From Elusimicrobiota bacterium (GTDB lineage Bacteria; Elusimicrobiota; Elusimicrobia; UBA1565; JACRDR01): DNA of 35,279 bases. A program made the translations under genes and the position numbers. The stretch is taken from contig JBGFSC010000011.1 of the NCBI GenBank assembly GCA_041694815.1, positions 1 to 35,279 of the forward strand, read 5' to 3'. Shown here piece after piece: positions 6,601-33,913 of this stretch. A model generated the notes under the pieces. That model did no database searches, had not been told where the DNA came from, and worked only from the letters and a program-made list of their open reading frames with translations. Within the stretch, counting starts at the first letter, position 1. The number at the start of each line of letters is the position of its first letter.

Positions 6601-7117
6601 CACGACCCGCGAGAATTTCCGCCAGACCTTCACCGAGGTCCGGGAGCATTTCCGTACCATTTATGCCGCCCTTTTCGAGGGAGGGGAGGCCGACCTGGTC
6701 CTCACCGACCAGGAGAATCTCCTGGAGACCGGCATTGAGATCGTCGCGCAGCCTCCGGGCAAACGCTTGCAGAGCGTCACGCTCCTCTCCGGGGGAGAGA
6801 AGACACTCACCGCCATCGCCCTGCTGTTCGCCTTTTTCATGGTCAAGCCGTCGCCGGTCTGCATGCTTGACGAGGCCGACGCCGCCTTGGACGAGGCCAA
6901 CACCGAGCGTTTCGCGGGCATGCTCAAGGAGTTCTCGCACCAGTCCCAGTTCCTCGTGATCAGCCACAGCAAGCGGACCATGGAGGCGGCCGATCAGATC
7001 TACGGGGTCACGATGGAGGAATCCGGCATCAGCCAGATTATTTCCGTGGATTTCAAGAAAAAATCCGCTTCCGAGACCGCGCCCGAGGCTTCGGCGCCCG
7101 CGGAACCGCTAGTATAG
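3626..7117 (+). CDS. smc: Chromosome segregation protein SMC
   Basis: Walker A GPNGCGKSN, long coiled coils, central hinge, LSGGE signature and LDEADAALD Walker B/D-loop; 1163 aa. Confidence 0.97.
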   Translation: MYLKSVDIVGFKSFADKTHLEFKPGITGVIGPNGCGKSNVQEAIRWCIGEMSWKSLRSNSMVDVIFAGTAKRNPMSMAEVTLTFDNASGKLPVQFSEITVTRRLFRSGESEYYLNRTQCRLRDIKELFLDTGIGGDGYAIIDQGGVDFVLSAKPEDRRALFEEAAGVSKYKAKREEALRKLERVEIDLARLNDSMAMINEQIKKLDSDARKAKLYQKYKEELAAMEAGQMLQEMSSIRSELEKESGLMAPVQELLGQKRAEASAEEARLSALLLERTELEAQAAASNEAIASVKAELVRLEERLSNNQVMRSDLGGRRQEALAALSKDTERSVALDPEIDRAQAALEQAANKELEARQALGDFEGEAQAFQAKLSEAQAEAQARTARCLEATQAVVEAHNTSSSLRNRRSHAELELKQALKELGRQEEKVQACRAEIDARQAEAEAQRLREQAGQQEVSQAESRLQAEIARKAELEEKIFSLRADAVRVEAKIEAVQAQGSQDAYWVGAQAAANAGIPGILGTLSSLLRVDPAFASRLEDVLGERLYSVVCEDVAAAKSGIEFLRAAGKGRARFLVLSAFAEGAAPPVIYPPEARPLAERVSFDPRVERAGTALLAECYVVGDALFGDHWVCGGADMPETAPRLSDIGALSAEATGLRQRQSEFVSIREATQAAIAEAGAALKQASESHRQDAAKLHALEASLSQRRESLGLLEQEAELCRNEAARLQEDITSLEREIVEAEEQGRRRQETEREFKALQAEAEARIQTLGAEASELQMRRHRLESSLELLATHRAVAQKEFDRLVVEKETLEQDSARRRGELEAIESRLAECDKVELDSRQQSDAGHRRLAELEGAAQQLHSRLLDMTQRAQALQQSLRALQESCAQAQDQLHQWEIKESGLKAREQSLKGRLWDEWQLTWEEASAKYAQQAVDGEKLQFLRRRIQSLGNVNMAAPEEYEALNQKHGFLNSQIDDLSKAKEDLRAAIGKINATTRENFRQTFTEVREHFRTIYAALFEGGEADLVLTDQENLLETGIEIVAQPPGKRLQSVTLLSGGEKTLTAIALLFAFFMVKPSPVCMLDEADAALDEANTERFAGMLKEFSHQSQFLVISHSKRTMEAADQIYGVTMEESGISQIISVDFKKKSASETAPEASAPAEPLV

Positions 7118-7188
7118 GACTTAGGTCCTTCGCCCCAAATATTTAGGCCCCTAAGGCCCATGCACCCCTCGGGAAGCAACAATACAAT
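7116..7188 (+). promoter_or_regulatory. Box-type promoter A: two palindromic boxes plus -10
   Basis: AGGAC-TTAG-GTCCT (7116-7129), GGCCC-CTAA-GGCCC (7146-7159), 23 nt, TACAAT (7183-7188), 6 nt, ATG at 7195. Confidence 0.7.
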
Positions 7189-7194
7189 AGAGGC

Positions 7195-7374
7195 ATGGTA
7201 CGGAGAATCATGGCCTCTAAGAAGCCGAAGCTCGGCCCAACACAGCGGATCGTCCTAGGCCCCCAGGGCCTAAACGGCGCCTCGCGGCATAGAACCCAGC
7301 TTATCCTCGGGCGCGATCAATGCGCCTATCTTTGGCTAACCGATCGCGGCAAGCACCGGACGATCAAGTTTTAA
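7195..7374 (+). CDS. Small basic hypothetical protein, 59 aa (not in the ORF track)
   Basis: MVRRIMASKKPKLGPTQRIVLGPQGLNGASRHRTQLILGRDQCAYLWLTDRGKHRTIKF*. Leaderless start 6 nt after TACAAT; the stop overlaps the next ATG (TAATG). Confidence 0.55.
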   Translation: MVRRIMASKKPKLGPTQRIVLGPQGLNGASRHRTQLILGRDQCAYLWLTDRGKHRTIKF

Positions 7375-8441
7375 TGAGGCGAGCGGCCGCACCGCTCCTG
7401 GCGTTCGCGCTGGGAGCCGGATGCATCGGCGGGGCGTGGGCCCAGAATCCCAGCCTTTCGGACGACTATAAGGCGATGATGGGATGGCTTTCCAACGAGG
7501 TGGTCCAAGGCCTGGCGTTCAACGCCGGCTCCACCTTCGACCCCCCCCATGAGCTGCCCGCATGGAAATTGCAGCCCGACATCAGCGTGGGTCTCGGCAG
7601 CGTCCCGCTCGACAAGGCTAAATTCCCAAAAATGAGCGTGCCGGCCTTGGCCGAGAAGAATCCGACGGAGATGCTTCCCAACGATGTGCGCTTCCCGAAC
7701 CTCACCTTGCACATGCGCTTCGGCCTGCCCGGGCGCATGGACCTTTCCTTGCGGGGTGCGGGGATGACCGTGCCCAAGGGCCACTCGCTGGCGCCCGGCA
7801 CCCAGGGAGACGGGCAAAGCAGCACCCTAGGCCTTGGGGCGCGCAAGCATTTCTTCGGCGGCGACGACGATCCGCTGCTTAGCCTGGGCCTCAACTATAA
7901 CCACGTGCGCGGGCATTTCAATTTTCTCAACCGCATCCAATACCTACAGCTGCTGCCCGGCTACACCATCGACGCGGTCAACACGGGTCGCCTGGAGTGG
8001 AACGTCAACAGCTTCGGCGGCAACGCCGTCGTAAGCCAGACCTTCGGGGCTTGGACCCCCTTCGTGGGCGGCGGGCTCAATTACATGACCGGATCGGTCA
8101 AGGCCCGCCTGCAGTCGGATTTCGCGACGGCCCTCATCTCGCCGGCGGTGGGCGAAGCCAGCGCCAAGCCCGAGGCCATCATGACCCGCTTTATTTTCGG
8201 CGTCCAGATGGACCATTCGCGCTTCGGGCTGTTTCTCAACGGAGAGGTGAAAACCTCCGGCGCCTCGGCCGGAAAGACCTTTATCGTGTCCACAGGAGTC
8301 GCGGCCCCGTTTCGCTTCGGCGCCTCGAGGCTCTCGGCCCGGACCGAGGAGGGGTCTCGGGTCGCCTACAGGCCGCCCGGGGCCGAAGCCCTCCGCAAGA
8401 GGGAGGACGACGCGCACCCGGAGCTACTTTTCCTGCAATGA
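7374..8441 (+). CDS. Secreted hypothetical protein, probable outer-membrane beta-barrel
   Basis: ATG at 7374 gives a signal peptide (MRRAAAPLLAFALGAGCIGGAWA). Alternating amphipathic Gly/aromatic strands such as LSLGLNYNH and TPFVGGGLNY. Confidence 0.65.
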   Translation: MRRAAAPLLAFALGAGCIGGAWAQNPSLSDDYKAMMGWLSNEVVQGLAFNAGSTFDPPHELPAWKLQPDISVGLGSVPLDKAKFPKMSVPALAEKNPTEMLPNDVRFPNLTLHMRFGLPGRMDLSLRGAGMTVPKGHSLAPGTQGDGQSSTLGLGARKHFFGGDDDPLLSLGLNYNHVRGHFNFLNRIQYLQLLPGYTIDAVNTGRLEWNVNSFGGNAVVSQTFGAWTPFVGGGLNYMTGSVKARLQSDFATALISPAVGEASAKPEAIMTRFIFGVQMDHSRFGLFLNGEVKTSGASAGKTFIVSTGVAAPFRFGASRLSARTEEGSRVAYRPPGAEALRKREDDAHPELLFLQ

Positions 8442-8824
8442 CGAGCCCGCAGACGTCCATATTGGTCGTCGAGGACGACATCCATTTCCGCGAGACGCTT
8501 ATCGACGCGATGGCGCTCAAGAACGTGCGAGTCAGCGGCGTCGCCTCGGGGGAGGGGGCGCTGAAGGCCGTGCTCTCCGATCCCCCGTCGTTGATCCTGA
8601 TGGACGTACAGCTGCCCGACACTCACGGCTTCGACCTATGCCGCGCGCTCAAGCAGACCGGCAGGCTCAAGAACGTGCCGGTAATATTCCTCTCGGCACG
8701 CTATACGGAGCCCGCCGACCGCGCCGAGGGGCTTTTGGCCGGGGCCGACGCCTACCTTTCCAAGCCGGTGAACCTGGAATCCCTGTGGGAAGAAGTCCGC
8801 TATCTTCTTGACAAGGCCAATTGA
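8438..8824 (+). CDS. Single-domain response regulator (REC only)
   Basis: Motifs ILVVEDD, LILMDVQLP (phospho-Asp), VIFLSA and AYLSKP. ATGA overlap with the upstream gene. Confidence 0.9.
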   Translation: MTSPQTSILVVEDDIHFRETLIDAMALKNVRVSGVASGEGALKAVLSDPPSLILMDVQLPDTHGFDLCRALKQTGRLKNVPVIFLSARYTEPADRAEGLLAGADAYLSKPVNLESLWEEVRYLLDKAN

Positions 8825-8837
8825 GTCCTGCTAACAT
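8808..8837 (+). promoter_or_regulatory. Sigma70-type promoter of the trxA operon
   Basis: TTGACA (8808-8813), 18-nt spacer, TAACAT (8832-8837) with extended TG. GGAGGA SD at 8913-8918. Confidence 0.65.
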
Positions 8838-8924
8838 GAGCTTGTTGTAGCCGCTTAAAGCGCTTCCCTAGCTTTCGCTCTCCCAAACGATCTTTACGAA
8901 AATCTCGGGGTCTGGAGGAAAATC

Positions 8925-9260
8925 ATGGGTTCGGAAATACAGTTGACCGACGACAGCTTCGACGCGCAGGTGGTCAAGAGCGCGGAGCCGGTCCTGGTGG
9001 ATTTTTGGGCGCCCTGGTGCGGGCCCTGCCGCATGCTGGCCCCGGTGGTCGAGGAGCTGGCCAAGGAGTACGCCGGGAAGGTGCGCGTGGCCAAGCTCAA
9101 CACCGACGAGCACCCCAACGCCGCCACCCGATACAAGATTTCAGCCATCCCGACCCTGCTCTTCTTCAAAGGAGGCAAGGTCGTCGAGCAGTTGGTGGGG
9201 GTCCATTCGAAGGCGGACATCAAGAAGACCCTCGATTCGCTCGTCGGCGCCCAAGCTTAG
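8925..9260 (+). CDS. trxA: Thioredoxin
   Basis: DFWAPWCGPC active site, IPTL cis-Pro motif, 111 aa, strong SD. Confidence 0.96.
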   Translation: MGSEIQLTDDSFDAQVVKSAEPVLVDFWAPWCGPCRMLAPVVEELAKEYAGKVRVAKLNTDEHPNAATRYKISAIPTLLFFKGGKVVEQLVGVHSKADIKKTLDSLVGAQA

Positions 9261-9263
9261 GGA

Positions 9264-9773
9264 GTGCCGGGATTCTTTCTCGCGTTGGCGGCGGCCCTGG
9301 GGCTGGCGGGCTGCGCGCGGCCTTCGAGCCTCGACGACCGCGCGCCCGACTTCGAGGCCCCGGACCTCCAAGGCCGAACGTTTCGGCTTTCCGAGCTGCG
9401 CGGCAAGGCGGTGCTGCTTGATTTCTGGGCCACGTGGTGCGGCCCCTGCGAGGAGACCATCCCCTCCTTGGAGCGGCTGCATGAGAAGTACGCTTCGGGA
9501 GGGCTGGAGGTGGTCGGCGTGAGCGTGGACGGCGCCCCTAAGGAGGTGCCGCGCTACGTGAAGGCGCACGGGATGCGTTATAGGGTGCTCCTCGATCCGG
9601 ACCAGCGGGTTATGGAGCGCTACGGGGTCAGCAGCATCCCGACCTCGGTGTTGATCGACCCCCAGGGAAGAATCGCGCAGCGATGGCTCGGCTTCGACGC
9701 GCTCGTCCTAGCCGAGCAGGAGAAGTCCGTCCGCTTGCTGCTTGAGCGTAACGCGCCGGCGAAGACGAAATAA
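9264..9773 (+). CDS. TlpA/ResA-family thiol-disulfide oxidoreductase, lipoprotein
   Basis: LAGC lipobox; motifs APDF, GKAVLLDFWATWCGPC and IPTSVLID. Confidence 0.9.
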   Translation: MPGFFLALAAALGLAGCARPSSLDDRAPDFEAPDLQGRTFRLSELRGKAVLLDFWATWCGPCEETIPSLERLHEKYASGGLEVVGVSVDGAPKEVPRYVKAHGMRYRVLLDPDQRVMERYGVSSIPTSVLIDPQGRIAQRWLGFDALVLAEQEKSVRLLLERNAPAKTK

Positions 9774-9779
9774 AGTCCA

Positions 9780-12461
9780 GTGTCCGTGACCGCTTCTAAA
9801 ACACAACGCTTGTACCTGGTGGATGCCCACGCCTACCTGCATCGCGCCTACCACGCGCTTCCTCCGCTCAAGACCTCCAAGGGGGAGCCGGTCGGCGCCT
9901 TGTTCGGGTTCGCGCGCATGCTGCAGGTCCTGCTCAAGCGCGAGAAGCCCGAATGCCTGATCGTGTGCTTCGATATGCCGGGTCCGACCTTCCGCCACAA
10001 GGCCTACGCGCAGTACAAAGCCACCCGCAAGGAGATTGACGGGGATTTGAAGTCGCAGCTGGCCCTGGCCATGCCCATGGCGGAGGCAATGGGCCTGCGC
10101 TGCCTGGGAGCTGAGGGCTTCGAGGCCGATGACCTGATGGCGACCTTGGCCAGGCGCGCCGTCTCCCGCGGCTTGGACGTGGTGCTGGTCACCGGCGACA
10201 AGGACGCCCTACAGCTCGTGGGCGAGCGCGTCAAGGTGCTCAATGAGGCTAAGGGGGAATGGTTCGACGCCCAGAAGGTCCTCGAGAAGTTCAACGTACG
10301 TCCGGGCCAGATCGTCGACTACCTCTCTCTCATCGGCGATAGCTCCGACAACGTGCCGGGCGTGCCGGGCATCGGCAGCGCGGGAGCCGTCAAGCTCCTG
10401 GCGCGATACGGAAGCCTGGACGCGTTGCTCCAGGCGGCGCGGGCCCGGGATCCAGGATTGCCTCCCAAACTGGCCAAGGCCTTAAGCGAGTCCCAGGAAA
10501 AGGCCCTCTTCGGGCGCACGCTGCTGGAGCTCGATGCCTCCGCTCCTGTCGAGGAATCGCCCGAGCGCTGCGCCGTTAAACCGGCCGATCCCGCCGTCCT
10601 GATACCTCTCTTCGAGCGCTTGGAATTTTTCTCTCTGCTCAAGGAGCTATTGCCCGATTATTCGGCCGCCGTCGGGGACGGCCCCATCTCCGTCTCGGGG
10701 ACTTGGTCCGCCCCCGCCCCTCCCAAGCCGTTGCCGCTCGGCGCATGGCTGGAGCGCGCCGCCGGGGCCCGGGAGATTGCGGTCGCGTTTTGCCCCGCTT
10801 CCGAGGAGATATCCTCCTCGCAGCCGGGCTTGCCCCTGCCCGCCTGCTGGACGCTGGGCCTAAGCCTGCCCGAGGGCCCCGTATGCCTTGCCGACGCGCA
10901 GAAGGCCGGCGCCCACGACGGTTTGGCGCGGTTGCTCGGAGATCCGAAGGTCGGCAAGCTGGGCCACGACCTCAAGGCGGTGTTCTCGTCCTTGGCCGAG
11001 TCCGGGACCCGCGCCGCCGGGGCGCGCTTCGATTCGATGCTTGCCGCCTACTGCTTGAGTCCGGGCCAGGCGAAATATGAGTTCGCGTCGGTCTGGCGAT
11101 TGGCGGGGGCCCAGCCGCTTCCCGCCGGGGAAGAGTCGCGGGCGGCGGCCTTGAGGCAGGCGGCCGCGTTCTGGAAATTGCGCGAGGAGCTTAAGCGTCG
11201 CCTTGAGGACGCGCGTGTCCTGGAACTTTACGAAGGGCTGGAGATGCCGCTAGTCGAGGTGCTCGCCTCCATGGAGAGCCGCGGCGTGGCGGTCGACGCC
11301 CCGTACCTGATTCGCCTGCAGGAGGAGTTCCAGGGGCGCATCGCGGAGGTCAAGCGCGAGCTCGATGCGATGGCTGGCGCCGAGCTCAACCTCAACTCCC
11401 CGCGCCAGCTGGGCAAGCTGCTTTTCGAGGATTTGAAGCTTCCCGTGATCCGCAAGACGCCCAAGGGCGGCGTCTCTACGGACGAAGAGACGCTGCGCGC
11501 CTTGACTTCCCTGCATCCCATCCCCGCCAAGATTATCGAGTACCGGGAGCTGGCCAAGCTCAAGTCGACCTACGTGGACGCGCTTCTGGAGCGTCGGGAC
11601 CCCCGGACCGGCCGCGTGCATACGCGCTTCAACCAGGCGGGAACCGCGACGGGGCGGCTCTCCAGCGTGGAGCCCAACTTGCAGAACATCCCTATCCGCT
11701 CGCCGCTGGGCCAGAAGATACGCCGCGGCTTCGTCCCGGCGCCGGGCAACCTCCTGGTCTCCTGCGATTACTCGCAGATCGACCTACGCGTGCTGGCCCA
11801 TCTCTCCGAGGATCCCGAGCTCTGCGGGGCGTACCGCAAGGGCGTGGACGTGCATCTCAAGACCGCCTGCGAGGTGTTCGGCGTGGAGCCAGAGGCGGTG
11901 GACTCCGAGATGCGGCGGCGGGCCAAGGCCGTCAATTTCGGGATCGTCTACGGGCAGACGCCCTTCGGGCTCGGACAGGAGCTGGGCATTCCCGTGGCCG
12001 CGGCCAAGCAGTACATCGAGCGCTACCAGGCCCGCTACCGCGGGGTGGCGGAATGGAGCCGGCGCAATCTTGAGTCCGCGCGGCGCGATGGCTTCGTGCG
12101 CACCCTACTGGGGCGCGTGCGCTTCTTGCCCGACTTAAGCGCCAAGAATACCGCCGTCCGGCAATTCAACGAGCGCGCGGCGGGCAATACGCCGATCCAA
12201 GGTACTACGGCCGACATCATCAAGGTGGCCATGCTCAACATCCACCGCAAGCTCGGTTCGGAGGCGGCCGCCAAGGGCGCCGTCTTGCTACTTCAAGTGC
12301 ACGACGACCTCCTGTTCGAATGCCCCGCGGAGAAGGCCGAGGCGTTCGCCCGATGGGCCCGCCGCGAGATGGAGGAAGCGCTCAGACTGCGGGTCCCCCT
12401 GGTCGTGGAGGCCAAAATCGGCGCCAATTGGCAGGACCTCCGTCCGGTGCGAGAGACATGA
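9780..12461 (+). CDS. polA: DNA polymerase I
   Basis: 5'-3' exonuclease (LVDAH, EADD, GDKD, GDSSDNVPGV) and polymerase motifs (TGRLSS..PNLQNIP, DYSQIDLR, KAVNFGIVYG, QVHD). The proofreading domain looks degenerate. Confidence 0.97.
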   Translation: MSVTASKTQRLYLVDAHAYLHRAYHALPPLKTSKGEPVGALFGFARMLQVLLKREKPECLIVCFDMPGPTFRHKAYAQYKATRKEIDGDLKSQLALAMPMAEAMGLRCLGAEGFEADDLMATLARRAVSRGLDVVLVTGDKDALQLVGERVKVLNEAKGEWFDAQKVLEKFNVRPGQIVDYLSLIGDSSDNVPGVPGIGSAGAVKLLARYGSLDALLQAARARDPGLPPKLAKALSESQEKALFGRTLLELDASAPVEESPERCAVKPADPAVLIPLFERLEFFSLLKELLPDYSAAVGDGPISVSGTWSAPAPPKPLPLGAWLERAAGAREIAVAFCPASEEISSSQPGLPLPACWTLGLSLPEGPVCLADAQKAGAHDGLARLLGDPKVGKLGHDLKAVFSSLAESGTRAAGARFDSMLAAYCLSPGQAKYEFASVWRLAGAQPLPAGEESRAAALRQAAAFWKLREELKRRLEDARVLELYEGLEMPLVEVLASMESRGVAVDAPYLIRLQEEFQGRIAEVKRELDAMAGAELNLNSPRQLGKLLFEDLKLPVIRKTPKGGVSTDEETLRALTSLHPIPAKIIEYRELAKLKSTYVDALLERRDPRTGRVHTRFNQAGTATGRLSSVEPNLQNIPIRSPLGQKIRRGFVPAPGNLLVSCDYSQIDLRVLAHLSEDPELCGAYRKGVDVHLKTACEVFGVEPEAVDSEMRRRAKAVNFGIVYGQTPFGLGQELGIPVAAAKQYIERYQARYRGVAEWSRRNLESARRDGFVRTLLGRVRFLPDLSAKNTAVRQFNERAAGNTPIQGTTADIIKVAMLNIHRKLGSEAAAKGAVLLLQVHDDLLFECPAEKAEAFARWARREMEEALRLRVPLVVEAKIGANWQDLRPVRET

Positions 12462-13291
12462 GCCAGCGTTTTTCCCACGGACCCATCGATTTTCGTTCCA
12501 TGCCCTCGGCGGTGAAGGCGTTGATGCTGGCCAACTGCGTGGCTTTCCTCATGACGCAGATCGTCGCGGGCCAGTTCTTCGAGCTCTTCGGGCTCGTCCC
12601 GGCGCATGTGATCCGGGACCGCTGGGTCTGGCAGCCGGCCACCTACCTTTTCCTGCACGGCAGCTTCATGCACCTGCTCTTCAATATTTTCGCCTTATGG
12701 ATGTTCGGCGTGCCCATCGAGTCGGAGTGGGGCGCGCGCGAGTTCCTTAAATACTATTTCATCTGCGGGATCGGGGCCGCGCTCTGCAGCGTCGCCTTGA
12801 ACCCCCATTCGCACTTCCCGGTGATCGGCGCCTCGGGGGCCGTCTACGGCCTGCTGGTGGCCTTCGCGATGCTCTACCCGGATGCGGTGATCTACCTCTA
12901 TTTCTTCTTCCCGATTAAGGCGAGCCACATGGCGATACTCTTCGGCCTCATCGAGTTCTTCGCCGGAACCACGCAGGCGACGCCCGGGGTGGCGCGCTTC
13001 GCGCATCTCGGCGGCATGGTGGTGGGCTACCTGTACCTGCGCTGGTGGTGGATCGTGAAGATCAGGCTCAAGGGCCTTTTCTCTCCCGCGGGCCGGGGGG
13101 CCGCCACCCCGCGCCGGTCGCCCAGGCGCCCCAGCCCCGAGGCGCCCCTCGAGGATTCCATGGCCGAGGTGGACCGCATCCTCGACAAGATATCGGCCTT
13201 CGGCAAGGATTCCTTGAACGACGAGGAACGCGAAGTGCTTCGCCGGCACTCGGACCGCGCGCGCAAGAACAGGCCGGAGGGCAATGCGTAG
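12458..13291 (+). CDS. Rhomboid intramembrane serine protease with C-terminal DUF6576-like tail
   Basis: Motifs HLLFN, GASG (catalytic Ser), AHLGG (catalytic His) and VDRILDKIS tail. ATG at 12458 overlaps the polA stop. Confidence 0.9.
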   Translation: MSQRFSHGPIDFRSMPSAVKALMLANCVAFLMTQIVAGQFFELFGLVPAHVIRDRWVWQPATYLFLHGSFMHLLFNIFALWMFGVPIESEWGAREFLKYYFICGIGAALCSVALNPHSHFPVIGASGAVYGLLVAFAMLYPDAVIYLYFFFPIKASHMAILFGLIEFFAGTTQATPGVARFAHLGGMVVGYLYLRWWWIVKIRLKGLFSPAGRGAATPRRSPRRPSPEAPLEDSMAEVDRILDKISAFGKDSLNDEEREVLRRHSDRARKNRPEGNA

Positions 13292-13889
13292 GCTGGTGGT
13301 GGGCCTGACGGGGGGCATCGGCAGCGGCAAGAGCACCGCGCTCGCTGCGTTCGAGGACGCCGGCGCCGAGGCCGTCTCCTGCGATCGCTTGGCGCATGAG
13401 CTCTCCGAGCCCGGGCGCCCGCTCCATCGGGCGCTTTATCGGGCCTTCGGCCCCCGTTACTTCGACCGCAACGGGCGTCTGGACCGCCGGGCGCTAGCCA
13501 GGCATGTGTTCTCCCGGCCTTCCGAGCGCCGCCGGCTGGAGAGGCTCACGCATCCGCCGATACTCCGGGAGCTCGAGCGCCGCGTCGCCGCCGCGCGGAA
13601 AAAAGTCGTCGTCATCGACGTGCCCCTGCTTTTCGAGGCGAGTCTCGCGGCGCGCTTCGACGTGACGGTGCTGGTGTCGGCGCCCGAGGAGGCCGCGGCC
13701 CGGCGCGTGATGCGCCGCGACGGCGCGGCCTTGGCGCAGATCCGCAGGCGACAGCGCAGCCAGATGCCGCTGGCGGGCAAGCTGGCCTTGGCCGACGTCG
13801 TGATCCGCAACGAGGGCCGCGTCAAGGATTTGAGATCGCAGGTGAAGGAGTATTACAGGGCTTTCGAACTGATCGCCACCGCCGCCTAG
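13284..13889 (+). CDS. coaE: Dephospho-CoA kinase
   Basis: Motifs [24 protein letters not shown] and ADVVIRN. Confidence 0.95.
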
Positions 13890-13899
13890 GAGACCGAAA

Positions 13900-15207: not shown

Positions 15208-15223
15208 AAATCCGCAGCAAGAT

Positions 15224-15289
15224 AGGCCCTAAGTGCTTGCCGGGCCTGCCCTTTGGGCCCATGCCGAATCAGGTTTGGCTTCGTATAAT
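15224..15289 (+). promoter_or_regulatory. Box-type promoter B
   Basis: AGGCC-CTAA-GTGCT (15224-15237), TGCCC-TTTG-GGCCC (15247-15260), 23 nt, TATAAT (15284-15289), 6 nt, GTG at 15296. Confidence 0.72.
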
Positions 15290-15295
15290 GTCCCC

Positions 15296-15817
15296 GTGGG
15301 ATTCCTCGGCCTTGTCGCGTTCCTTTCCTTCGGCACGCCCAACATCGTCCTAGCCGCCGAGCCGGGCCCGGAAGACGCCAAGCAAAGCGCCGATGCCGCG
15401 TTCGGGGAGAATACGGGCGCCAAGCCGGGCCGATCTGGCGAGGCGGTTTCCTCGACTTCTTCCGGAATTGGCGCCCAACTGGGTAAATTTTTCTCCAAGG
15501 AACCCGCAAAACGGAAAACGCGGATTCCCTCTCCCGAAAATTTCGGAGTCGACCCGGACTCAAAGAAAGGCTTTTGGGAGAACGCCTTGGGAGACGCCGC
15601 GGCCTTGCTCTCCATTCCCCTATTCGGCCTGGCCGTAGTCTTGATGGGCCCCATCGGCGCCCTAGCCTTGGCCGCGGGGGGCGCCATCGCCGGCAGCCTT
15701 ACCACTGGTGATCCGTTGGTGGGCATCTATTCCGTGATGGTCTGGCCGATGTTTACCAGCATGTCGATCGGCGCCAAGCTCGGCGCGAAGATCGATCGCT
15801 TCTTTAAATCTCGTTAA
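15296..15817 (+). CDS. Hypothetical exported/membrane protein with Gly/Ala-rich C-terminal helices
   Basis: GTG at 15296 gives a signal-like N-terminus (MGFLGLVAFLSFGTPNIVLAA). Hydrophobic segment LLSIPLFGLAVVLMGPIGALALAAGGAIAG. Confidence 0.65.
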   Translation: MGFLGLVAFLSFGTPNIVLAAEPGPEDAKQSADAAFGENTGAKPGRSGEAVSSTSSGIGAQLGKFFSKEPAKRKTRIPSPENFGVDPDSKKGFWENALGDAAALLSIPLFGLAVVLMGPIGALALAAGGAIAGSLTTGDPLVGIYSVMVWPMFTSMSIGAKLGAKIDRFFKSR

Positions 15818-15823
15818 CCGATC

Positions 15824-15905: not shown

Positions 15906-15947
15906 ACGAAACGCTCGATCTCGTTTACGAAACGATCGTAACCATTT

Positions 15948-16037
15948 TGCCCAAAGGGCCCATTTGCCGGTAGGCCTAAATCCGGCCGGAGACCGGGTCT
16001 TTGGGCCCAGGCGCCCTGACCTGTGAGAGATTACGCT
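15948..16037 (+). promoter_or_regulatory. Box-type promoter C (three boxes)
   Basis: TGCCC-AAAG-GGCCC (15948-15961), partial box AGGCC-TAAA (from 15972), GGGTC-TTTG-GGCCC (15995-16008), 23 nt, TACGCT (16032-16037). Confidence 0.68.
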
Positions 16038-16074
16038 AAAGATGAATGTCATCCTTAACTCGGTTGGGGTAAAA

Positions 16075-16542
16075 ATGAAAACACGATTAATGATCGCGTC
16101 GCTCATCGCTTTTGCTTGGGGCGCCGCCGCGTATGCCGGTGAAAGCGACGAGGCGTTGGTGGCGGGAGCCGCCGTGGAGTTCGACAATAGCGCGGCCGGA
16201 TCTCAAGCAACTGGCGTCGCGGCAAGGAGCGGCTTGAAGGGCATGAGGCAGGCGGGTGTCATCAGTTCGACGAAGGCTAAGGGCCGAGCCGTCGCGCAGC
16301 CTTCCGCTAAATGCAGTTCACAAGGCCCTTCGAATAAAGCGCTCAGGCTATGGAAGAGCCTTGCGTGGGCGGGAGTGACGACTGCCGTCATCGGAGGGGC
16401 GACCGCCGTTGGTCTTGTCATCGCTACCTTGGTCACCGGCAATGTGAATCTCGCGGCTTTTGGCTTGGGCATAACGTTGGGCTCGATGCTGAGCCTGTTC
16501 ATCAGCACCGTCGCGACGATTCAAGCTAAGAAGTTGCAATAA
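16075..16542 (+). CDS. Hypothetical exported/membrane protein with two C-terminal Gly-rich TM helices
   Basis: Signal peptide MKTRLMIASLIAFAWGAAAYA. TM segments AGVTTAVIGGATAVGLVIATLV and LAAFGLGITLGSMLSLFISTVA. Confidence 0.7.
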   Translation: MKTRLMIASLIAFAWGAAAYAGESDEALVAGAAVEFDNSAAGSQATGVAARSGLKGMRQAGVISSTKAKGRAVAQPSAKCSSQGPSNKALRLWKSLAWAGVTTAVIGGATAVGLVIATLVTGNVNLAAFGLGITLGSMLSLFISTVATIQAKKLQ

Positions 16543-16550
16543 TAGTCGGG

Positions 16551-21265: not shown

Positions 21266-21268
21266 GCG

Positions 21269-23312: not shown

Positions 23313-23355
23313 AGTATGGCCCCGCTCGGCCGAAAGCGCAAGGGCCCGGTCCTGA
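23313..23355 (-). promoter_or_regulatory. Box-type promoter E (only the proximal half-site is well conserved)
   Basis: Minus strand: GGCCC (23346->23342), 23 nt, CATACT (23318->23313), 6 nt, ATG at 23306. Confidence 0.5.
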
Positions 23356-26878: not shown

Positions 26879-28962
26879 TTCAGCTCCTCGTCTATTCGCT
26901 GCTGGCGCCGTCCGTCCTCGCCGCCGAGCCCGAGCCCTTCCGCCTTCCGCCCCCGACCACCTCCCAGTTCGTAGAATTCTCCTCCGACCATTTCGAATAC
27001 GACCGGACGAGCTCGACGCTGCACCTGATCGGGCACGCGCGGCTGCACAACGCCACCATGACGATGCGCGCCGACGAGATGTGGATGGACTTGGAGACCC
27101 GGCGCACGAGGGCCGAGGGGCACGTGGAGATCGAGCAGGGTCCTGGTATCCTATTCAGCGATCGGGGCGAATACGATTTCGAAAGCGAGGAGGGGGCGTT
27201 CTGGAAGACGGTGGGCGGCTTCCCCCCCTGGCGCATCTACGGCGCGAAGATGCGGGTGGACTCGAGGCGTACCCTGTATTACCGTAGGGCCCGCTTCACG
27301 AGCTGCGGCATGGGCCTACTGCGCGAGGACGCCAGACGCCTCCCGCATTACCATATGCGGGCCAGCTGGACGCGGGTGCGGCCCGATCATTCCCTATGGG
27401 CCTTCAACGTGTTCTTCTTCCTCCGGCGGCTTCCCATCTTCTACACGCCGGTGCTCTACAAGTCGCTGGCCAAGGAGCACCTATTGCGCACGCGGCTGAC
27501 CCCCGGCTACGCCCATCGCGACGGCGGCTTCGCGAAGACGACCACGATCTTCAACCCGATCCATAATCTCCAGAACGAGGTATTCGTGGACCATTACGGG
27601 CATCTGGGCATCGGGGTCGGCAACCAGCTGCAGTTCAAGGCCTCCGAGATAGACCGGGGCACGCTTTACGCCTACCGCATCAAGGAAAAGTACCCTAGCC
27701 CGGACCCGGGCAAGCCCCCCGCGGAGCGTTGGGTGCTGCTGGGCGACCAGTACCAGACCTTGGTCGGCCCCTACGCGATGCAGCTGCGCCTGCAGGCGCA
27801 GTCGGACCCGGATTTCAACAACCACTATACCCGCTCCAACGCCTTCCGTGTGACGCAGCAGATGGTCAACAACGGCGCGCTGGTCCGCAATGGGACATGG
27901 GGCATTACGCGCCTGAGCTACTCGCGCACCGACGACATGGACTTAATCACGCGCAAGTACAGGAAAACCAGCGAAAGCTCGCCGCGCCTGGAATTCAACT
28001 CGGCCCCCGTGGCGATCCCCAAGGTGAACCTGCTCAATACCTTCAGCCTGTCGGGCTCCAACGACTATAACCCGAGCGACACACTGTTCCACCGCAACGG
28101 CTCCGCCGGCTGGCAGATGACGCAGAACTACATGCTTCGGGGCGTGAGCTTCGTGCCGCTCATCGGGATCACCGAAACCTACATCGACAATGCCGTGCTG
28201 GCCGACCGCTTCGGCCGCAGCCGCCGCTACGTCGACGCCTTCGTGGGCCGCTACAACTTGGGCGGCACGGCGCGCGTGAACAATCCCTTGGGGGCCACCG
28301 ATTTCACCCACGCCTATGTCCGGCGCTTCGTGCCCGACACGCTCATCCCCGACGTGTACGCGGCCGACAAGGGCGTCGAGAGGAACATGTCCACCCTGGC
28401 GCACGCCTTCCGTCCCACGCGCGCGCTTTTCCTACGCACCGAGACGGGCTACGATTTCCGAACCTATTGGGACCGCAGCGTCGGCTTCCGTGACCGCGTG
28501 CAGCCGTTGATCGCCGATTTCAATTTCATCCCGAACAGGAAATTCAACGTCTCCGTCCGCGATAGCTATTCCCTGAATAAGGGCAACGAGAACTTCCTGC
28601 TCCAAGCCGATTTCGGGGACCGGACGGGCAGCTTTTTCGGCGTCGGGGTCTTTCACAGCCTCGGCGACGTACAGCATTATATCCTAAGCCAGGAGATCGG
28701 CTGGCCCTCCACGGGCACCTGGCATGTATTGGGCGCGCTGCGTTCGGACCTCTACAACACCGGCGGCCCGAAATTCTCGCGCTGGTATTTTTTCGAGAAG
28801 GAGATCATCCTCAAGTACAACTTCCACGATTTCAATACCCGCTTCGTATTCCGCCTGCGGCCCAACGACGTGCGGGAGGTCCAGTTCATGTTGACCTTGA
28901 GGCTCGAGGCGACCGACGTGTGGCGGCGCCAGATCTCCACGGACTACGTCGGAGAACGCTAG
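26875..28962 (+). CDS. lptD: LptD-like LPS-assembly outer-membrane protein
   Basis: Signal peptide, OstA-like beta-jellyroll N-domain, then ARFTSC, PHY, PIFYTP and SDPDF, followed by a long aromatic beta-barrel region. Confidence 0.72.
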   Translation: MIQLLVYSLLAPSVLAAEPEPFRLPPPTTSQFVEFSSDHFEYDRTSSTLHLIGHARLHNATMTMRADEMWMDLETRRTRAEGHVEIEQGPGILFSDRGEYDFESEEGAFWKTVGGFPPWRIYGAKMRVDSRRTLYYRRARFTSCGMGLLREDARRLPHYHMRASWTRVRPDHSLWAFNVFFFLRRLPIFYTPVLYKSLAKEHLLRTRLTPGYAHRDGGFAKTTTIFNPIHNLQNEVFVDHYGHLGIGVGNQLQFKASEIDRGTLYAYRIKEKYPSPDPGKPPAERWVLLGDQYQTLVGPYAMQLRLQAQSDPDFNNHYTRSNAFRVTQQMVNNGALVRNGTWGITRLSYSRTDDMDLITRKYRKTSESSPRLEFNSAPVAIPKVNLLNTFSLSGSNDYNPSDTLFHRNGSAGWQMTQNYMLRGVSFVPLIGITETYIDNAVLADRFGRSRRYVDAFVGRYNLGGTARVNNPLGATDFTHAYVRRFVPDTLIPDVYAADKGVERNMSTLAHAFRPTRALFLRTETGYDFRTYWDRSVGFRDRVQPLIADFNFIPNRKFNVSVRDSYSLNKGNENFLLQADFGDRTGSFFGVGVFHSLGDVQHYILSQEIGWPSTGTWHVLGALRSDLYNTGGPKFSRWYFFEKEIILKYNFHDFNTRFVFRLRPNDVREVQFMLTLRLEATDVWRRQISTDYVGER

Positions 28963-28994
28963 GGATTTGTCATGAAAATGCTAAACTTTCGTCC

Positions 28995-30062
28995 ATGAAG
29001 GCGCTCGTACTCTCGGGCGGCAAGGGCACCCGCCTGCGGCCGATCACCCATACCTCCGCCAAGCAGCTCATCCCGGTGGCCAACAAGCCGATTCTGTTCT
29101 ACGGCCTGGAGGCGATCGCCGCGGCGGGCATCAAGGAGGTCGGCATCGTCGTGGGGGATACGCGGGCGGAGATCGAGGCCGCCGTCGGCGACGGGAGCCC
29201 TTGGGGATTTCGGGTGACCTACATTCCCCAGGAAGCTCCCCTCGGCCTGGCCCATGCGGTCAAGATCTCCAAGGAGTTCATGGGGGGCTCGCCGTTCTTG
29301 ATGTTCCTGGGGGACAACCTGCTCAAGGAAGGACTCAACGGTATCGTCGAGGATTTCAAGAAGAACAAGCCCAATGCCCAGATCCTGGTCGCCAAGGTGC
29401 CCAACCCCCAGCAATTCGGCGTCGTGGAGATGAACGGGAGCCGGGTCTTGCGCCTCGTCGAGAAGCCGGCCGAGCCCAAGAGCGACCTGGCCCTGGTGGG
29501 GGTATACCTCTTCGACTCGACGATTTTCGAGGCCATCGACAATATCCGGCCCTCGAGGCGCGGCGAGCTCGAGATCACCGACGCCATCCAATGGCAGGTG
29601 GACCGCCAGCGGCGCGTGACGGTTAAGCATATCGACGGCTGGTGGAAGGATACGGGAAAGCTCGAGGACATGCTCGAGGTCAACCGCCTGGTGCTCGAGT
29701 CGGTCCAGGAAGGCCTGCACCCGACGGCCTCCGTCGACGAGCATTCGAAGCTCGAGGGCCGGGTCGTGCTGGAGGAGGGGGTGCACGTCGTGCACTCCAC
29801 GATCCGGGGGCCCGCGGTGATCGGCAAGGGCAGCCGGATCACCCGCTCCTACGTCGGCCCCTACTCGTCCATCTATTTCAACGTTTCGATCGAAGACAGC
29901 GAGGTGGAGCATTCCATCGTGCTAGAGCACGCCAAGATCCGCAATATCCGCCGCATCCAGGATTCGCTGATCGGCCAGCGCGTCGAGGTGCTTCGCTCGC
30001 ACGGGGTGCCTGCCGCCTACCGCCTCATGGTGGGCGATTCCAGCCGCGTCGAGGTGCCGTGA
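28995..30062 (+). CDS. rfbA: Glucose-1-phosphate thymidylyltransferase (long form)
   Basis: Motifs GGKGTRLRPITHTSAKQL, PLGLAHA, EKP, ELEITD and WWKDTG, plus a left-handed beta-helix tail. ATG at 28995 lies 7 nt after TGCTAAACT. Confidence 0.92.
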   Translation: MKALVLSGGKGTRLRPITHTSAKQLIPVANKPILFYGLEAIAAAGIKEVGIVVGDTRAEIEAAVGDGSPWGFRVTYIPQEAPLGLAHAVKISKEFMGGSPFLMFLGDNLLKEGLNGIVEDFKKNKPNAQILVAKVPNPQQFGVVEMNGSRVLRLVEKPAEPKSDLALVGVYLFDSTIFEAIDNIRPSRRGELEITDAIQWQVDRQRRVTVKHIDGWWKDTGKLEDMLEVNRLVLESVQEGLHPTASVDEHSKLEGRVVLEEGVHVVHSTIRGPAVIGKGSRITRSYVGPYSSIYFNVSIEDSEVEHSIVLEHAKIRNIRRIQDSLIGQRVEVLRSHGVPAAYRLMVGDSSRVEVP

Positions 30063-30063
30063 C

Positions 30064-31047
30064 ATGAACGAAGAAAGGATTTGGTTGGTGACGGGGGGGG
30101 CCGGGTTCATCGGCTCGCATATCGCCGAGGCCTTGGTCCAAGAGGGCAAGCGCGTGCGCATACTGGACAACCTCTCGACGGGGAAAAAGGGGCATATGGC
30201 CTCCTTCGAGAATCGTATCGAGTTCGTCGAAGGCGATATCCGCGACTTGGACGCCTGCCGCAGCGCCATGTCCGACGTGGACTTCGTCATCCACCAGGCC
30301 GCGATCCGCTCGGTGCCCAAATCGGTCGATCGCCCCACCGAGTCGCACGACGCCAACGCGACGGGGACGCTGAACATGCTGGTGGCGGCCCGGGAGGCCA
30401 AGGTGCGCCGCTTCGTCTACGCCTCCTCGAGCTCGGTGTACGGAGACGCCAAGCGTTTTCCCCAAAAGGAGGAATACCGCCCCCAGCCCGTGAGCCCCTA
30501 CGCGGCCTCCAAGCTCTGCGGCGAGCATTACGCGATGCTCTACACCAAGACCATGGGCCTCGAGACGGTTTCCTTGCGCTACTTCAACGTTTTCGGCCCG
30601 CGGCAGGACCCCGAATCCCTGTATTCCGCCGTGATCCCGAAGTTCATGGAGCAGGCGTACCTGGGCCGACCCCTCGAGGTGCATTGGGACGGCAGGCAGA
30701 CGCGGGATTTCACGCATATCCGCAACGTCGTTTCGGCGAATCTCTTGGCCGCCAAGACGCGCAAGGGGATCGGGGAGACCTTCAACATCGCCAACGGCAA
30801 GACCCATTCCTTGCTCGACATCATCAAGGTGATCGAGTCCATCCTGGGGCGCAAGCTCCAGAGGCGCCACACGCCGATGCGCCGAGGCGACGTGCGCAAG
30901 ACCTGGGCGGACATCTCCCGCGCGCGGAGGCTGCTGGGATATAAACCCGTCATGAATTTCGAGCAGGGCCTCAAGGACACCTGGGCCTATTTCGAGCGGC
31001 ATTATTTCAAGGGGCAGCGGCCGTCGGCGCAGCTGAGCGCGGCATAA
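30064..31047 (+). CDS. NAD-dependent nucleotide-sugar epimerase (WbpP/UDP-GlcNAc 4-epimerase-like extended SDR)
   Basis: Motifs TGGAGFIG, ASSSSVYG, YAASK and LRYFNVFGPRQ. Confidence 0.88.
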   Translation: MNEERIWLVTGGAGFIGSHIAEALVQEGKRVRILDNLSTGKKGHMASFENRIEFVEGDIRDLDACRSAMSDVDFVIHQAAIRSVPKSVDRPTESHDANATGTLNMLVAAREAKVRRFVYASSSSVYGDAKRFPQKEEYRPQPVSPYAASKLCGEHYAMLYTKTMGLETVSLRYFNVFGPRQDPESLYSAVIPKFMEQAYLGRPLEVHWDGRQTRDFTHIRNVVSANLLAAKTRKGIGETFNIANGKTHSLLDIIKVIESILGRKLQRRHTPMRRGDVRKTWADISRARRLLGYKPVMNFEQGLKDTWAYFERHYFKGQRPSAQLSAA

Positions 31048-31051
31048 GGCC

Positions 31052-32065
31052 ATGAAACTGCTGGTCACCGGGGGCCTTGGGTTCATCGGCTCCAACTTCA
31101 TCCGCTATTTCCTGAAGCGCTACCCGGACGCCTCGATCGTCAACCTCGACAAGAAGACCTACGCCGGTAATCCCGCCAACCTCGCGGAATTCGCCCGCGA
31201 CCCGCGCTACCGCTGGGTGCGCGCGGATATCGCCGACGCCAAGGCGGTGGATCGGTGCATGAAGGGGGCCTCCGCCGTCGTGCATTTCGCCGCCGAAAGT
31301 CATGTCGACCGCTCGATACTGGACGCCTCAGGCTTCCTTAAGACCAACGTGCTGGGCACACAGGTGCTCTTGGACGCCGCGCTCCGGCATAAGCTGGGGC
31401 GCTTCCTTCACGTGAGCACGGACGAGGTCTACGGCAGCGTGGAGGAGGGGTTCTCGCGCGAGGACGATCCCTTGGAGCCCAACAGCCCGTATGCCGCCTC
31501 CAAGGCCGCCTCCGATCTGCTCGTGCGTTCCTATATCGTCACGCACGGCCTGCCCGCGCTGATCACCCGCGCCTCGAACAATTTCGGCCCTTATCAGTAC
31601 CCGGAGAAGGCCATTCCTCTGCTCATCACCAATCTCATGGAGGATATCCCATTTCCCCTGTACGGGGACGGGCTCAACGTGCGCGACTGGCTCTACGTGC
31701 TCGACCATGCCAAGGCCATCGATGTCGTCTTGAGCCAAGGCAAGATCGGCGAGATCTACAACGTCGGGGGATCCTTTTCCTGCACGAACCGGGAGCTTGT
31801 GACCCGAATCCGCGAGATGATGGAGAAGCCGCCCGAGCTCATCCGCCACGTGGCCGACCGGAAGGGCCACGACCGGCGCTACGCCTTGGACTGCTCCAAG
31901 CTCCGCGCCCTGGGATGGAAGCCCGAGCTCTCCTTCGAGCAGGCCCTGGCCGAGACCATCGACTGGTACCGCGCGCATCGGTCCTGGTGGCGGCCGCTCA
32001 AGCGGGGCGAGGGGTACCGCCGCTATTACCGCAAGCAGTACAGGAGCCGACATGCAATCGCATAA
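31052..32065 (+). CDS. rfbB: dTDP-glucose 4,6-dehydratase
   Basis: Motifs HFAAESHVDRSI, STDEVYG, PYAASK, RDWLYV and DRKGHDRRY. Confidence 0.95.
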   Translation: MKLLVTGGLGFIGSNFIRYFLKRYPDASIVNLDKKTYAGNPANLAEFARDPRYRWVRADIADAKAVDRCMKGASAVVHFAAESHVDRSILDASGFLKTNVLGTQVLLDAALRHKLGRFLHVSTDEVYGSVEEGFSREDDPLEPNSPYAASKAASDLLVRSYIVTHGLPALITRASNNFGPYQYPEKAIPLLITNLMEDIPFPLYGDGLNVRDWLYVLDHAKAIDVVLSQGKIGEIYNVGGSFSCTNRELVTRIREMMEKPPELIRHVADRKGHDRRYALDCSKLRALGWKPELSFEQALAETIDWYRAHRSWWRPLKRGEGYRRYYRKQYRSRHAIA

Positions 32066-32645
32066 TCAGCACGCTCACGCCTCGCGCCCGATGCCCTGGG
32101 GATCGGCGAGCGGATGGATCGAGGTGGTCTGCGGGAGCATGTTCTCGGGCAAGACCCAGGAGCTCATCCGCCGCCTGCGCCTGGCGATGATCGCCAAGCA
32201 GAAGGTGCAGGTGTTCAATTCCTCCCTCGACGTGCGCTACGGCAAGAACCACATCATCTCGCATGACCTCTCGAAGATCGCCTCGCACTCCGCCGCGAAA
32301 TCGAAGGACATCCTGCGGATGGTGGAGTCCGACACCCAGGTGGTGGGCATCGACGAGGTGCAATTTTTCGATCCGGGCATCGTGGCGGTCTGCGAGGTCT
32401 TGGCCGGGCAGGGCCGTCGCGTGATCGCGGCGGGGCTCGACCAGGACTACCGCGGGCAGCCCTTCGCCGTCACCGCCAAGCTCATGGCCATCGCCGAGTT
32501 CGTCAGCAAGAATTTGGCCGTCTGCGTGGTCTGCGGCAATCCCGCCAACCGCACCCAGCGCCTCACCCACACCAAGAAGCGCATCGAGGTCGGCGCGGGC
32601 AGCAAGTACGAGGCGCGCTGCCGCCGCTGCTTCAGTATCGTCTAG
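32052..32645 (+). CDS. tdk: Thymidine kinase
   Basis: Motifs GSMFSGKT, IDEVQF and AGLDQDY; Zn site CVVC...CRRC. Confidence 0.95.
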   Translation: MQSHNQHAHASRPMPWGSASGWIEVVCGSMFSGKTQELIRRLRLAMIAKQKVQVFNSSLDVRYGKNHIISHDLSKIASHSAAKSKDILRMVESDTQVVGIDEVQFFDPGIVAVCEVLAGQGRRVIAAGLDQDYRGQPFAVTAKLMAIAEFVSKNLAVCVVCGNPANRTQRLTHTKKRIEVGAGSKYEARCRRCFSIV

Positions 32646-33842
32646 TTACCAGAGTTTAAAGACTTCGTCGGCCGATTCTTTGCGAGGGCCCCCAGATGGC
32701 TCGACAGCCGGTTTCTCGCCTATTTGTCTAGATAATCGACCATAGGCCGCTTGGGCTTCCTCGGCCGACACGTCGGGTGACCAGTAACCGGTGAGTTTGT
32801 CTTCCCGCCATTTTCTCGCGGTGCCGTCGTCGGCGAGAGTGATCATCTTCGTGGCGTCCTGGTTGAAGGAGACTCCGGTGACAGGTCCTTGATGGCCTCG
32901 CAGCGTATCGAGTTTTCTTCCCGACCGCGCGTCCCAGACCGCCACCGTCGGTCCTGAGCGGTCCCAGCGCGTAATTCCGATTTTTGAGGCGTCCGGGCTG
33001 AAGGCCACGCATTGAAGGGGAAAGAGATGATCGTCGGTTTGCTCCAGGGTGGCGACTCTCTCCCACCTCCGCGTATCCCAAACCGTATATACTTGGGATA
33101 CTATTCCGCTATGTAGCAGCACCCTAGAACCATCCGGACTGAATCTAGCGACGTTGAGGCGGTAATTTTCGAGAGGAGTTTCCTGGATGAGCTCTAGAAC
33201 CTTCCCTCGCTCGACGGCGTAAATCCTAACGACGCTTATCGCCCTCTTGTTGACCACCCAGAATAGGCGGGAGCCATCGGCATTGAGGGCGGCTCCGACC
33301 GCGGGAGCCCTTTTTTTCAATAGGACTTTGCCTTTTCCCGATTCGAGGTCCCAGGCTTTGACCCTCGGATTGCGAGCATTCCATACAGGAGCTGCGTAAA
33401 CCGTCAGGCCATCGGCCGCCGGAGCGGCGGCGTCCTCCATTCTAATCTTGAAGTTTCCGAGCAAGTTCCGGCTCTGCGTGTCCCAAACGGAGAAATCGTT
33501 GAGTCCCCAGGCGATCAGCGTGCGGTCATCCGCGCTGAGCAATGCGTCGCGTATATATCCTTGAGGGTGTTTGAAAGAATCTATTTTTTCGCCCGTTCCA
33601 GCGTCCCAGATTGCCGCTTCGCCGGCCATGTCTCCCGTGATAATCCGAGTCCCGTCCCAGCTATAACGGATGGAGGTCAAATTGGTCTTTTTTAATATGA
33701 CTCCAAGCTCCAAAAGCTCTTTCTGCGCTTGTTCCAGTAAGCCGCTCTTCGGGAGACCGCCGGCAACGCCCGGTGCAGCCGCGTTGCCTGTCCGTGCGAT
33801 AAGAATCGCCAAGACCAGGGCGGAGCAGGCCATTCGAGGCAT
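32646..33842 (-). CDS. Secreted WD40-repeat (beta-propeller) protein
   Basis: Signal-like N-terminus and repeated ...WD units, e.g. GHQGPVTGVSFNQD...DGTARKW. Confidence 0.85.
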   Translation of the reverse strand: MPRMACSALVLAILIARTGNAAAPGVAGGLPKSGLLEQAQKELLELGVILKKTNLTSIRYSWDGTRIITGDMAGEAAIWDAGTGEKIDSFKHPQGYIRDALLSADDRTLIAWGLNDFSVWDTQSRNLLGNFKIRMEDAAAPAADGLTVYAAPVWNARNPRVKAWDLESGKGKVLLKKRAPAVGAALNADGSRLFWVVNKRAISVVRIYAVERGKVLELIQETPLENYRLNVARFSPDGSRVLLHSGIVSQVYTVWDTRRWERVATLEQTDDHLFPLQCVAFSPDASKIGITRWDRSGPTVAVWDARSGRKLDTLRGHQGPVTGVSFNQDATKMITLADDGTARKWREDKLTGYWSPDVSAEEAQAAYGRLSRQIGEKPAVEPSGGPRKESADEVFKLW

Positions 33843-33848
33843 GTTTTA

Positions 33849-33913
33849 AGTATATAAGGCGTCAATGAAATGGGTCGAGGGTCCAAAGGCCTAAATGCCG
33901 GGCCTTTGGGCCT
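33849..33913 (-). promoter_or_regulatory. Box-type promoter D (two boxes)
   Basis: Minus strand: AGGCC-CAAA-GGCCC (33913->33900), AGGCC-TTTG-GACCC (33892->33879), 24 nt, TATACT (33854->33849), 6 nt, ATG at 33842. Confidence 0.72.

Follow-up and report, generated by a model that had tools for sequence, protein, structure and literature searches.

A palindromic promoter box marks a candidate exported-protein regulon across Elusimicrobia, with a Tad-linked NarL-family protein as its putative activator

The window, the whole 35,279-nucleotide stretch of DNA analysed here, is contig C39 of an Elusimicrobiota genome (G000; 2.77 Mb, 54 contigs). Release factor 1 finds its best named matches in Elusimicrobia. 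It contains a 14-bp palindromic box set at a fixed distance upstream of the −10 hexamer in promoters of genes for predicted signal-peptide proteins. An earlier note, made from the window alone, had claimed five such promoters; all five 14-mers were found where it had placed them, as were their gaps to the −10 (23, 23, 23, 23 and 24 nt) and the −10 hexamers themselves. Scored with a matrix trained on G000, the source of all bit scores given for the window, sites 1, 2, 3 and 5 reached 15.6, 11.1, 16.0 and 15.9 bits and were retained. Site 4 (23342–23355, minus strand) scored −19.2 bits and was rejected as a box, being a lone right half-site; no alternative box was found at gaps of 18–59 nt in its promoter. 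Five genes had been described as box-free. For mltA, the cyclase gene, rpmE and rfbA this stood, with no match of at least 4 bits in the stretches scanned; the murA/site-4 stretch holds one 5.9-bit match.

The four retained promoters each carry more than one box. In promoter 1, the proximal box (7146–7159; centre at about −42.5) is preceded by a 12.1-bit distal box (7123–7136) lying in phase 23 bp upstream, which in turn overlaps by 7 bp an extra, perfectly palindromic box (7116–7129; 12.2 bits). Six nucleotides past its −10, TACAAT (7183–7188, plus strand), the ATG claimed as a start codon is present, but it opens a predicted leaderless open reading frame (ORF) of 59 codons (7195–7374, plus strand) without a signal peptide. 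The stop of this upstream ORF overlaps the start, at 7374, of a DUF6588/Lsa36-like signal-peptide protein (7374–8441, plus strand; Pfam match below cut-off, Atlas value 0.98 to an Elusimicrobiota DUF6588 cluster). An additional 12.2-bit box lies within the upstream ORF (7258–7271), with no −10 at a gap of 22–24 nt. Promoter 2 combines a distal box (15224–15237; 12.7 bits), a proximal box 23 bp downstream (15247–15260) and the −10 TATAAT (15284–15289, plus strand), followed at a gap of 6 nt by the GTG of a leaderless orphan signal-peptide protein with a hydrophobic, Gly-rich C-terminal half and no Pfam family (15296–15817, plus strand). In promoter 3 the distal box (15948–15961; 9.1 bits) lies 47 bp upstream of the proximal one (15995–16008), which is array position 3; the −10 is TACGCT (16032–16037, plus strand) and the product is another orphan signal-peptide protein without a Pfam family (16075–16542, alternative start 16042, plus strand; best Atlas value 0.79, a lead only). 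Promoter 5, on the minus strand, has a distal box of 17.5 bits (33900–33913) 21 bp upstream of its proximal box (33879–33892), the −10 TATACT at a gap of 24 nt (33849–33854) and a leaderless signal-peptide WD40 propeller (32646–33842).

At the level of sequence, the genome-wide comparisons demonstrate that about 110 G000 promoters carry the box at a fixed place, with a recognizable motif, geometry, array structure, target bias and range; the very large regulon that the earlier note had extrapolated from the window is borne out. The consensus is T-RGGNCY-WW-RGNCCY-A, and the box ends 23 nt upstream of a TAnnnT −10. A matrix seeded with seven window boxes gave 83 matches of at least 10 bits, those seven included, in upstream regions after repeat masking; dinucleotide shuffles gave 13.6. 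In a hold-out test, in which the window-box matrix was applied with the window contig excluded to 4,913 non-coding −10 elements, 39 boxes fell at gap 23 versus a median of four per offset (p = 3e-25). Further hold-out peaks at gaps 46–48 and 69–70 correspond to phased arrays, and a peak at gap −1 (18 matches) arises because the box has its own T-A flank. Spacing between boxes peaks at 22–24 and 45–47, at least two boxes occur in 91 of the 111 promoters, and ten divergent promoter pairs have common arrays. Boxes in coding DNA show no positional peak. A two-box score recovered 110 promoters versus 4–11 at five shifted offsets; because sites of this kind had gone into training its matrix, cleaner evidence comes from the hold-out test.

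Because 23 is 6 + 17, the end of the box meets the start of the −35 hexamer: the box abuts that element and does not substitute for it, as had been supposed. The bases at the −35 place, just downstream of the box, are mostly A/T, T/G and G, and none of 46 box promoters matches the −35 at five or more of its six positions, compared with 59 of 457 leaderless promoters that lack a box, in line with the earlier claim that none has a good −35. With transcription assumed to start 7 nt past the −10, successive box centres fall at about −42.5, −65.5 and −89. Two further genes were considered as members and set aside. Upstream of secA there are two boxes, but a repetitive extragenic palindrome (REP)-like element separates them from the −10, and at a giant gene of 3,925 amino acids the box lies 47 nt from the −10; neither is therefore among the 111 promoters. 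A box was found at one of 48 tRNA genes, and that gene is divergent from a target.

Exported proteins dominate among the predicted targets. The test used leaderless promoters, whose starts are unambiguous: a signal-peptide protein comes first behind 42 of 46 with a box and 151 of 457 without one (p = 5e-15), with 3 of 11 at a control offset, and the secreted character claimed for the targets is upheld. Across all promoters, 87 of 111 first genes pass our signal-peptide heuristic; ten of the 24 that fail are divergent partners, and several look like signal peptides by eye. First genes start 5–10 nt past the −10 in 58 of 110 cases. Targets are AT-shifted, with a third-codon-position GC content (GC3) of 0.71 versus 0.82. 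Outside the window, 28 of the 111 first genes, picked mainly for length, were scanned against Pfam, and eight had no family. The others include ATP-linked proteins (FtsH and Lon with signal peptides, an AAA_5 ATPase and pyruvate kinase), proteases (two subtilases, prolyl oligopeptidase, M13, M16, M28, a zincin and a trypsin-like protein) and endonuclease I, a lytic transglycosylase, a serine hydrolase, an amylase, WD40, HEAT, TPR and DUF885 proteins. One WD40-containing similarity cluster accounts for nine first genes. Normally cytoplasmic enzymes occur as box-headed signal-peptide versions: a pyruvate kinase barrel (L302:184-1314), a two-ring AAA_5 ATPase (L295:147-2843) and an alpha-amylase/debranching-like enzyme (L254:1681-3705).

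Many regulon-linked proteins end in a common C-terminal tail, A-E/Q-E-R-F-K/R-L, found in 30 of the 173 signal-peptide ORFs linked to the regulon and in 18 of the 685 others (p = 4e-11), although the pattern was picked after viewing the data and most of the 18 others sit in the same islands. A variant, A-D-E-V-F-K-L-W, closes the WD40 protein of the window (32646–32680), and about 55 other G000 genes bear the tail. It is private to this genome, which has 31 pattern matches, whereas 100 others from the order have 0–2 apiece. An N-terminal F-D tag was less clear. In a first test against all other signal-peptide genes, four patterns gave p values of 0.08–0.23 and a fifth 0.04; after regrouping, F-D-G/N occurred in 32 of 173 regulon-linked versus 27 of 685 other proteins, a significance that arose only once operon members had left the control and with patterns chosen post hoc.

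The box is present in most of the class Elusimicrobia. In the family and order, all 41 genomes contain the strict pattern box-N23-TANNNT, against 0–3 matches per genome for a reversed control; in the phylum, 67 of 161 genomes do. By group, it was found in f4 (47/50), f5 (7/8), f8 (2/2) and f2 with f3 (6/6), and in none of the genomes of f6 (0/3) or family f12 (0/49). Eight pattern matches in genome G043 were rejected as true boxes because nine of 12 relaxed matches there belong to one REP-like repeat. Inspected by eye, the target sets of five genomes (G104, G121, G163, G188 and G057) once more consist largely of signal-peptide proteins, and few homologs of these targets exist in G000. On these comparisons, the regulatory switch is conserved and its cargo is not.

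The regulator, which the earlier note had placed outside the window, has its best candidate at G000:C27:50865-51545. This protein combines a receiver (PF00072) with a GerE helix–turn–helix (HTH; PF00196), both above cut-off, and is the sole GerE/LuxR-type HTH protein in G000. Its Asp aligns with the phospho-acceptor region of DosR, and its recognition helix, K-T-V-K-N, aligns to DosR (3c3w) at positions equivalent to K179, K182 and N183. Orthologs of at least 65% identity are found in 67 of the 161 phylum genomes, 63 of which are positive for the strict motif, versus four of 94 without an ortholog, one of the four being G043 with its REP-like repeat; G063 and G141 become motif-positive once one mismatch is allowed (14 vs 6 and 21 vs 0). 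Identity across the class is 65–88%, and the helix is invariant in 30 loci. Two kinases, a dCache-HAMP kinase and a receiver-kinase hybrid, precede the regulator within a Tad (Flp) locus that also encodes Flp, TadE, CpaB, a secretin, an ATPase, two platform proteins and a TPR protein, and in 58 of 67 genomes, counted by hand, no more than 16 kb separates the regulator from the Tad ATPase. No box belongs to the promoters of Flp, the regulator and the pseudopilins themselves (best scores 1.5 bits upstream of Flp and −5.8 upstream of the regulator), and no conserved box flanks the regulator in 29 ortholog loci; the regulator would therefore control the cargo and not the pilus. The Tad ATPase itself (L308:12866-15190) carries a fused ParA/MinD-like domain, and matches to it occur in 131 of the 161 phylum genomes.

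Small box-rich genomes allow binder families to be excluded by absence. The CRP/FNR type, whose geometry the earlier note had invoked, is unlikely: in the one genome checked, G167 (16 strict matches, 95% complete), there are no HTH_Crp_2 matches. That genome shares the candidate regulator with G000 at 69% identity. OmpR was rejected as binder because the domain is missing from G167, G188 and G104, LysR because G000 has none and HTH_17 because G188 has none; a LexA-like XRE protein of G167, the only XRE there and adjacent to a box, has no homolog in G000. The family and recognition helix of the candidate, its co-occurrence with the box and the elimination of several other families together suggest that the NarL/LuxR-family response regulator is probably the binder. 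As anecdotes, a Listeria DegU operator probe holds a stretch resembling the left half-site of the box (PMC9263151), and PDB entry 7x1k has the same K-T-V-K-N-H helix.

Several known systems resemble parts of this arrangement. DosR/DevR of Mycobacterium tuberculosis is likewise a NarL-family dimer with a K-T-V-K-N helix, a G-G-(A)-C core in each half-site and an A/T centre, and it too acts from a proximal box (−42.5 or −43.5) beside a poor −35, with tandem boxes and common divergent promoters. According to PMC13486717, DosR uses K179, K182 and N183 to read GGGACT in a box whose centre is at −43.5, next to a suboptimal −35, and contacts sigma region 4 and alpha; according to PMC3177182, Dev boxes are tandem, with two to four per promoter, for example at −42.5 and −63.5. 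Here, by contrast, the core is 14–16 bp with RGGNCY half-sites, some 110 promoters are involved, the targets are exported and lineage-specific, and the sensors are the dCache-HAMP kinase and receiver-kinase hybrid of the Tad locus instead of hypoxia sensors. We rejected the candidate as a DosR ortholog since VraR/LiaR score higher and no DosS/T-type sensors are adjacent. PprB of the Pseudomonas aeruginosa PprA-PprB system is, according to PMC3510237, a NarL/LuxR-family regulator at a tad/flp locus that turns on surface and secreted products; it activates tad genes, whereas here the Tad promoters are box-free and some 110 promoters scattered over the genome are the targets. No PprB binding-site consensus was found in the literature text covered. 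As predicted from these comparisons, the system works like DosR, sits like PprB and is neither.

The gap-23 peak (39 vs 4) and the poor −35 give the class II type of sigma70 geometry. Class II CRP/FNR promoters and lambda CI at OR2/PRM also have a dyad near −42 adjoining the −35, and lambda operators are about 23–24 bp apart. The present system differs from the first in that the CRP HTH is absent from box-rich G167, and from the second in that G000 and G167 have no XRE protein in common. Myxococcus and Bdellovibrio, with their Kil (Tad-like) predation systems, also combine a Tad locus with many exported hydrolases. PMC8460266 places Kil in deltaproteobacteria and, in the passages covered, does not mention Elusimicrobia; the likeness is one of Pfam identity of Tad parts, and predation by this lineage is conjecture. 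We found no description in the literature of the motif, the regulator pairing or the insertion-sequence targeting reported below, curated motif databases lying outside this comparison.

Two insertion sequence (IS)-like elements of G000 are placed at box arrays. Element X was seen at nine contig ends (C3, C5, C9, C12, C15, C17, C33, C38 and C50). In seven of these, one end of X begins exactly 8 nt beyond an outermost box of at least 10 bits (chance per position, 3e-4); the remaining two adjoin a right half-site, and two flanks are identical. At the other end of X a box occurs in none of nine cases, and 4-bp target duplications pair the ends, giving an oriented insertion. Element Y (contig ends C12, C17, C20, C27, C38 and C45, and their partners) inserts within the outermost box in six of six cases (6.9–15.3 bits) and duplicates 9 bp of it, positions 5–13. 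The transposases fall outside the assembled contigs. The box hit lies 47–48 or 70–71 nt from the −10 in 11 of 15 cases. Four other repeated elements, with 45 ends between them, have no box within 29 nt, and a metagenome scan for full IS copies returned two unrelated chance matches only. Protein-guided targeting, sequence preference or selection may account for this placement.

Other observations concern G000 promoters and repeats. Leaderless transcription looks common, start codons peaking 6–8 nt past TAnnnT (198 at gap 6 vs ~60). A second positional word, TTTACC, lies about 38–39 nt upstream of the −10 in leaderless promoters (six of nine occurrences). A REP-like family of about 60 copies, together with other repeats, dominates intergenic k-mer counts. 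One box of 11.8–12 bits, possibly a repression site, is flanked by the TTGAC-type −35 and the −10 in the promoter of a pilT-like gene (L255, G000:C14:22754).

The box is very probably the binding site of a dimeric transcription activator, and the rival accounts differ in what they would have it bind or do. The one that deserves most attention, though unlikely, grants a real activator site and gives it to another conserved binder, such as a TetR- or MarR-like protein, a ribbon-helix-helix (RHH) protein or an unannotated fold, the NarL-family regulator merely sharing the clade. TetR- and MarR-type HTH proteins occur in seven of seven box-rich genomes, co-occurrence at the level of a clade would suit any clade-specific gene, and G102 has a homolog with the same helix but no boxes. 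On the other side, TetR and MarR proteins are usually local repressors, and the 7-2-7 symmetry, the GG-N-C core, the place at −42.5 and the tandem arrays fit a NarL-family activator with the same base-reading residues, whose class-wide conservation and invariant helix are described above. Distinctly less probable is that a repressor or silencer uses the arrays as operators and so holds horizontally acquired secreted genes off until induction. The AT shift of these accessory genes, the box within the pilT-like promoter and the gap −1 peak, if read as sites on the −10, would agree with such a role; however, that peak stems from the T-A flank of the box, and a repressor needs neither a place fixed within 1 bp against a weak −35 nor arrays that extend upstream only. 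Strict spacing to the −10 and the slightly asymmetric proximal box, with its conserved downstream flank, could also point to a core promoter element that serves an alternative sigma factor or a factor binding RNA polymerase. This is very improbable given a palindrome that is repeated in phase up to three times and common to divergent promoters, next to an ordinary TAnnnT −10 that is also used with TTGACA promoters in G000. That the arrays are non-regulatory remnants or target footprints of the two IS elements has next to no chance of being right: the IS ends carry no box, and one of them was found in none of 100 other genomes of the order searched, while the box-to-−10 geometry extends across the class.

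Our preferred explanation, a class-wide exported-protein regulon under the Tad-linked NarL-family activator, faces evidence of its own, which we gather here. The tree has essentially a single gain of ortholog and motif, so that their co-occurrence is not independent evidence. The helix residues equivalent to those of DosR also occur in homologs from box-less genomes: the Tad-linked homolog of G102 (52%) shares the K-T-V-K-N-H helix, yet boxes are absent there (4 vs 11 in the control), and G071, G050 and G180 likewise have homologs bearing this helix but lack boxes. The helix is therefore no predictor of the regulon. Conversely, G151 and G094 have the ortholog with a signal that is weak or at control level (5 vs 3 and 15 vs 14). 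Tad ATPases are present in 40 of the 49 f12 genomes, which lack box and regulator. The best PDB matches of the candidate are VraR/LiaR (E 1e-39, versus 3e-29 for DosR), and the box period is 23–24 bp versus 21 bp in DosR. The exclusion of binders covers CRP/FNR, OmpR, LysR, HTH_17 and XRE; the binder could belong to the TetR, MarR, AraC, GntR, ArsR, Fur, RHH or another family. Finally, G000 genes (2,367) come from our own Markov caller and signal peptides from our own hydrophobicity heuristic, neither being a standard tool such as SignalP. With these points counted, we put the probability of the whole explanation, which is drawn from genome comparison, at roughly 0.7.

Under the class-wide regulon reading, the phosphorelay encoded in the Tad locus would phosphorylate the NarL/LuxR regulator. 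Judged from the geometry and from DosR, one dimer would bind at −42.5 against the weak −35 and recruit sigma70 RNA polymerase, and further dimers would bind cooperatively at about −65.5 and −89. The phosphorylated regulator would thereby turn on some 110 promoters, and 125–170 exported proteins, jointly. The purpose is the least certain step: hydrolases, ATP-dependent enzymes with export signals and the Tad-like pili of predators (PMC8460266) tentatively suggest a contact- or nutrient-triggered attack or feeding on other cells or their remains, a suggestion that may well be wrong. The tie to life cycle, predation or host contact that the earlier note had proposed is likewise conjectural. More speculative, and rather doubtful, is a previously unrecognized cell-contact phase in Elusimicrobia, in which a Tad-linked phosphorelay and one regulator would deploy 100–200 exported proteins, some acting inside a prey or host cell, about 50 with a private tail for sorting or docking, and two IS elements would seek out arrays occupied by the regulator, in the way that Ty elements target tRNA genes. 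Signal-peptide Lon, FtsH, AAA ATPase, pyruvate kinase and an ATP/ADP-carrier-like protein need a compartment that contains ATP, hence the idea that they act inside another cell.

This is a first candidate master regulon for the mostly uncultured class Elusimicrobia, and it comes with a specific candidate protein–DNA pair. One switch would tie together several oddities of G000, namely ATP-dependent enzymes with export signals, WD40 islands and a common tail. The box picks out the fast-evolving secreted proteins of any class member from its genome, and the question of lifestyle, whether predator, epibiont or scavenger, becomes directly testable. The hrp and PmrA boxes serve as effector markers in pathogens; if the cell-contact phase were real, the present box would be a ready marker for effectors class-wide.

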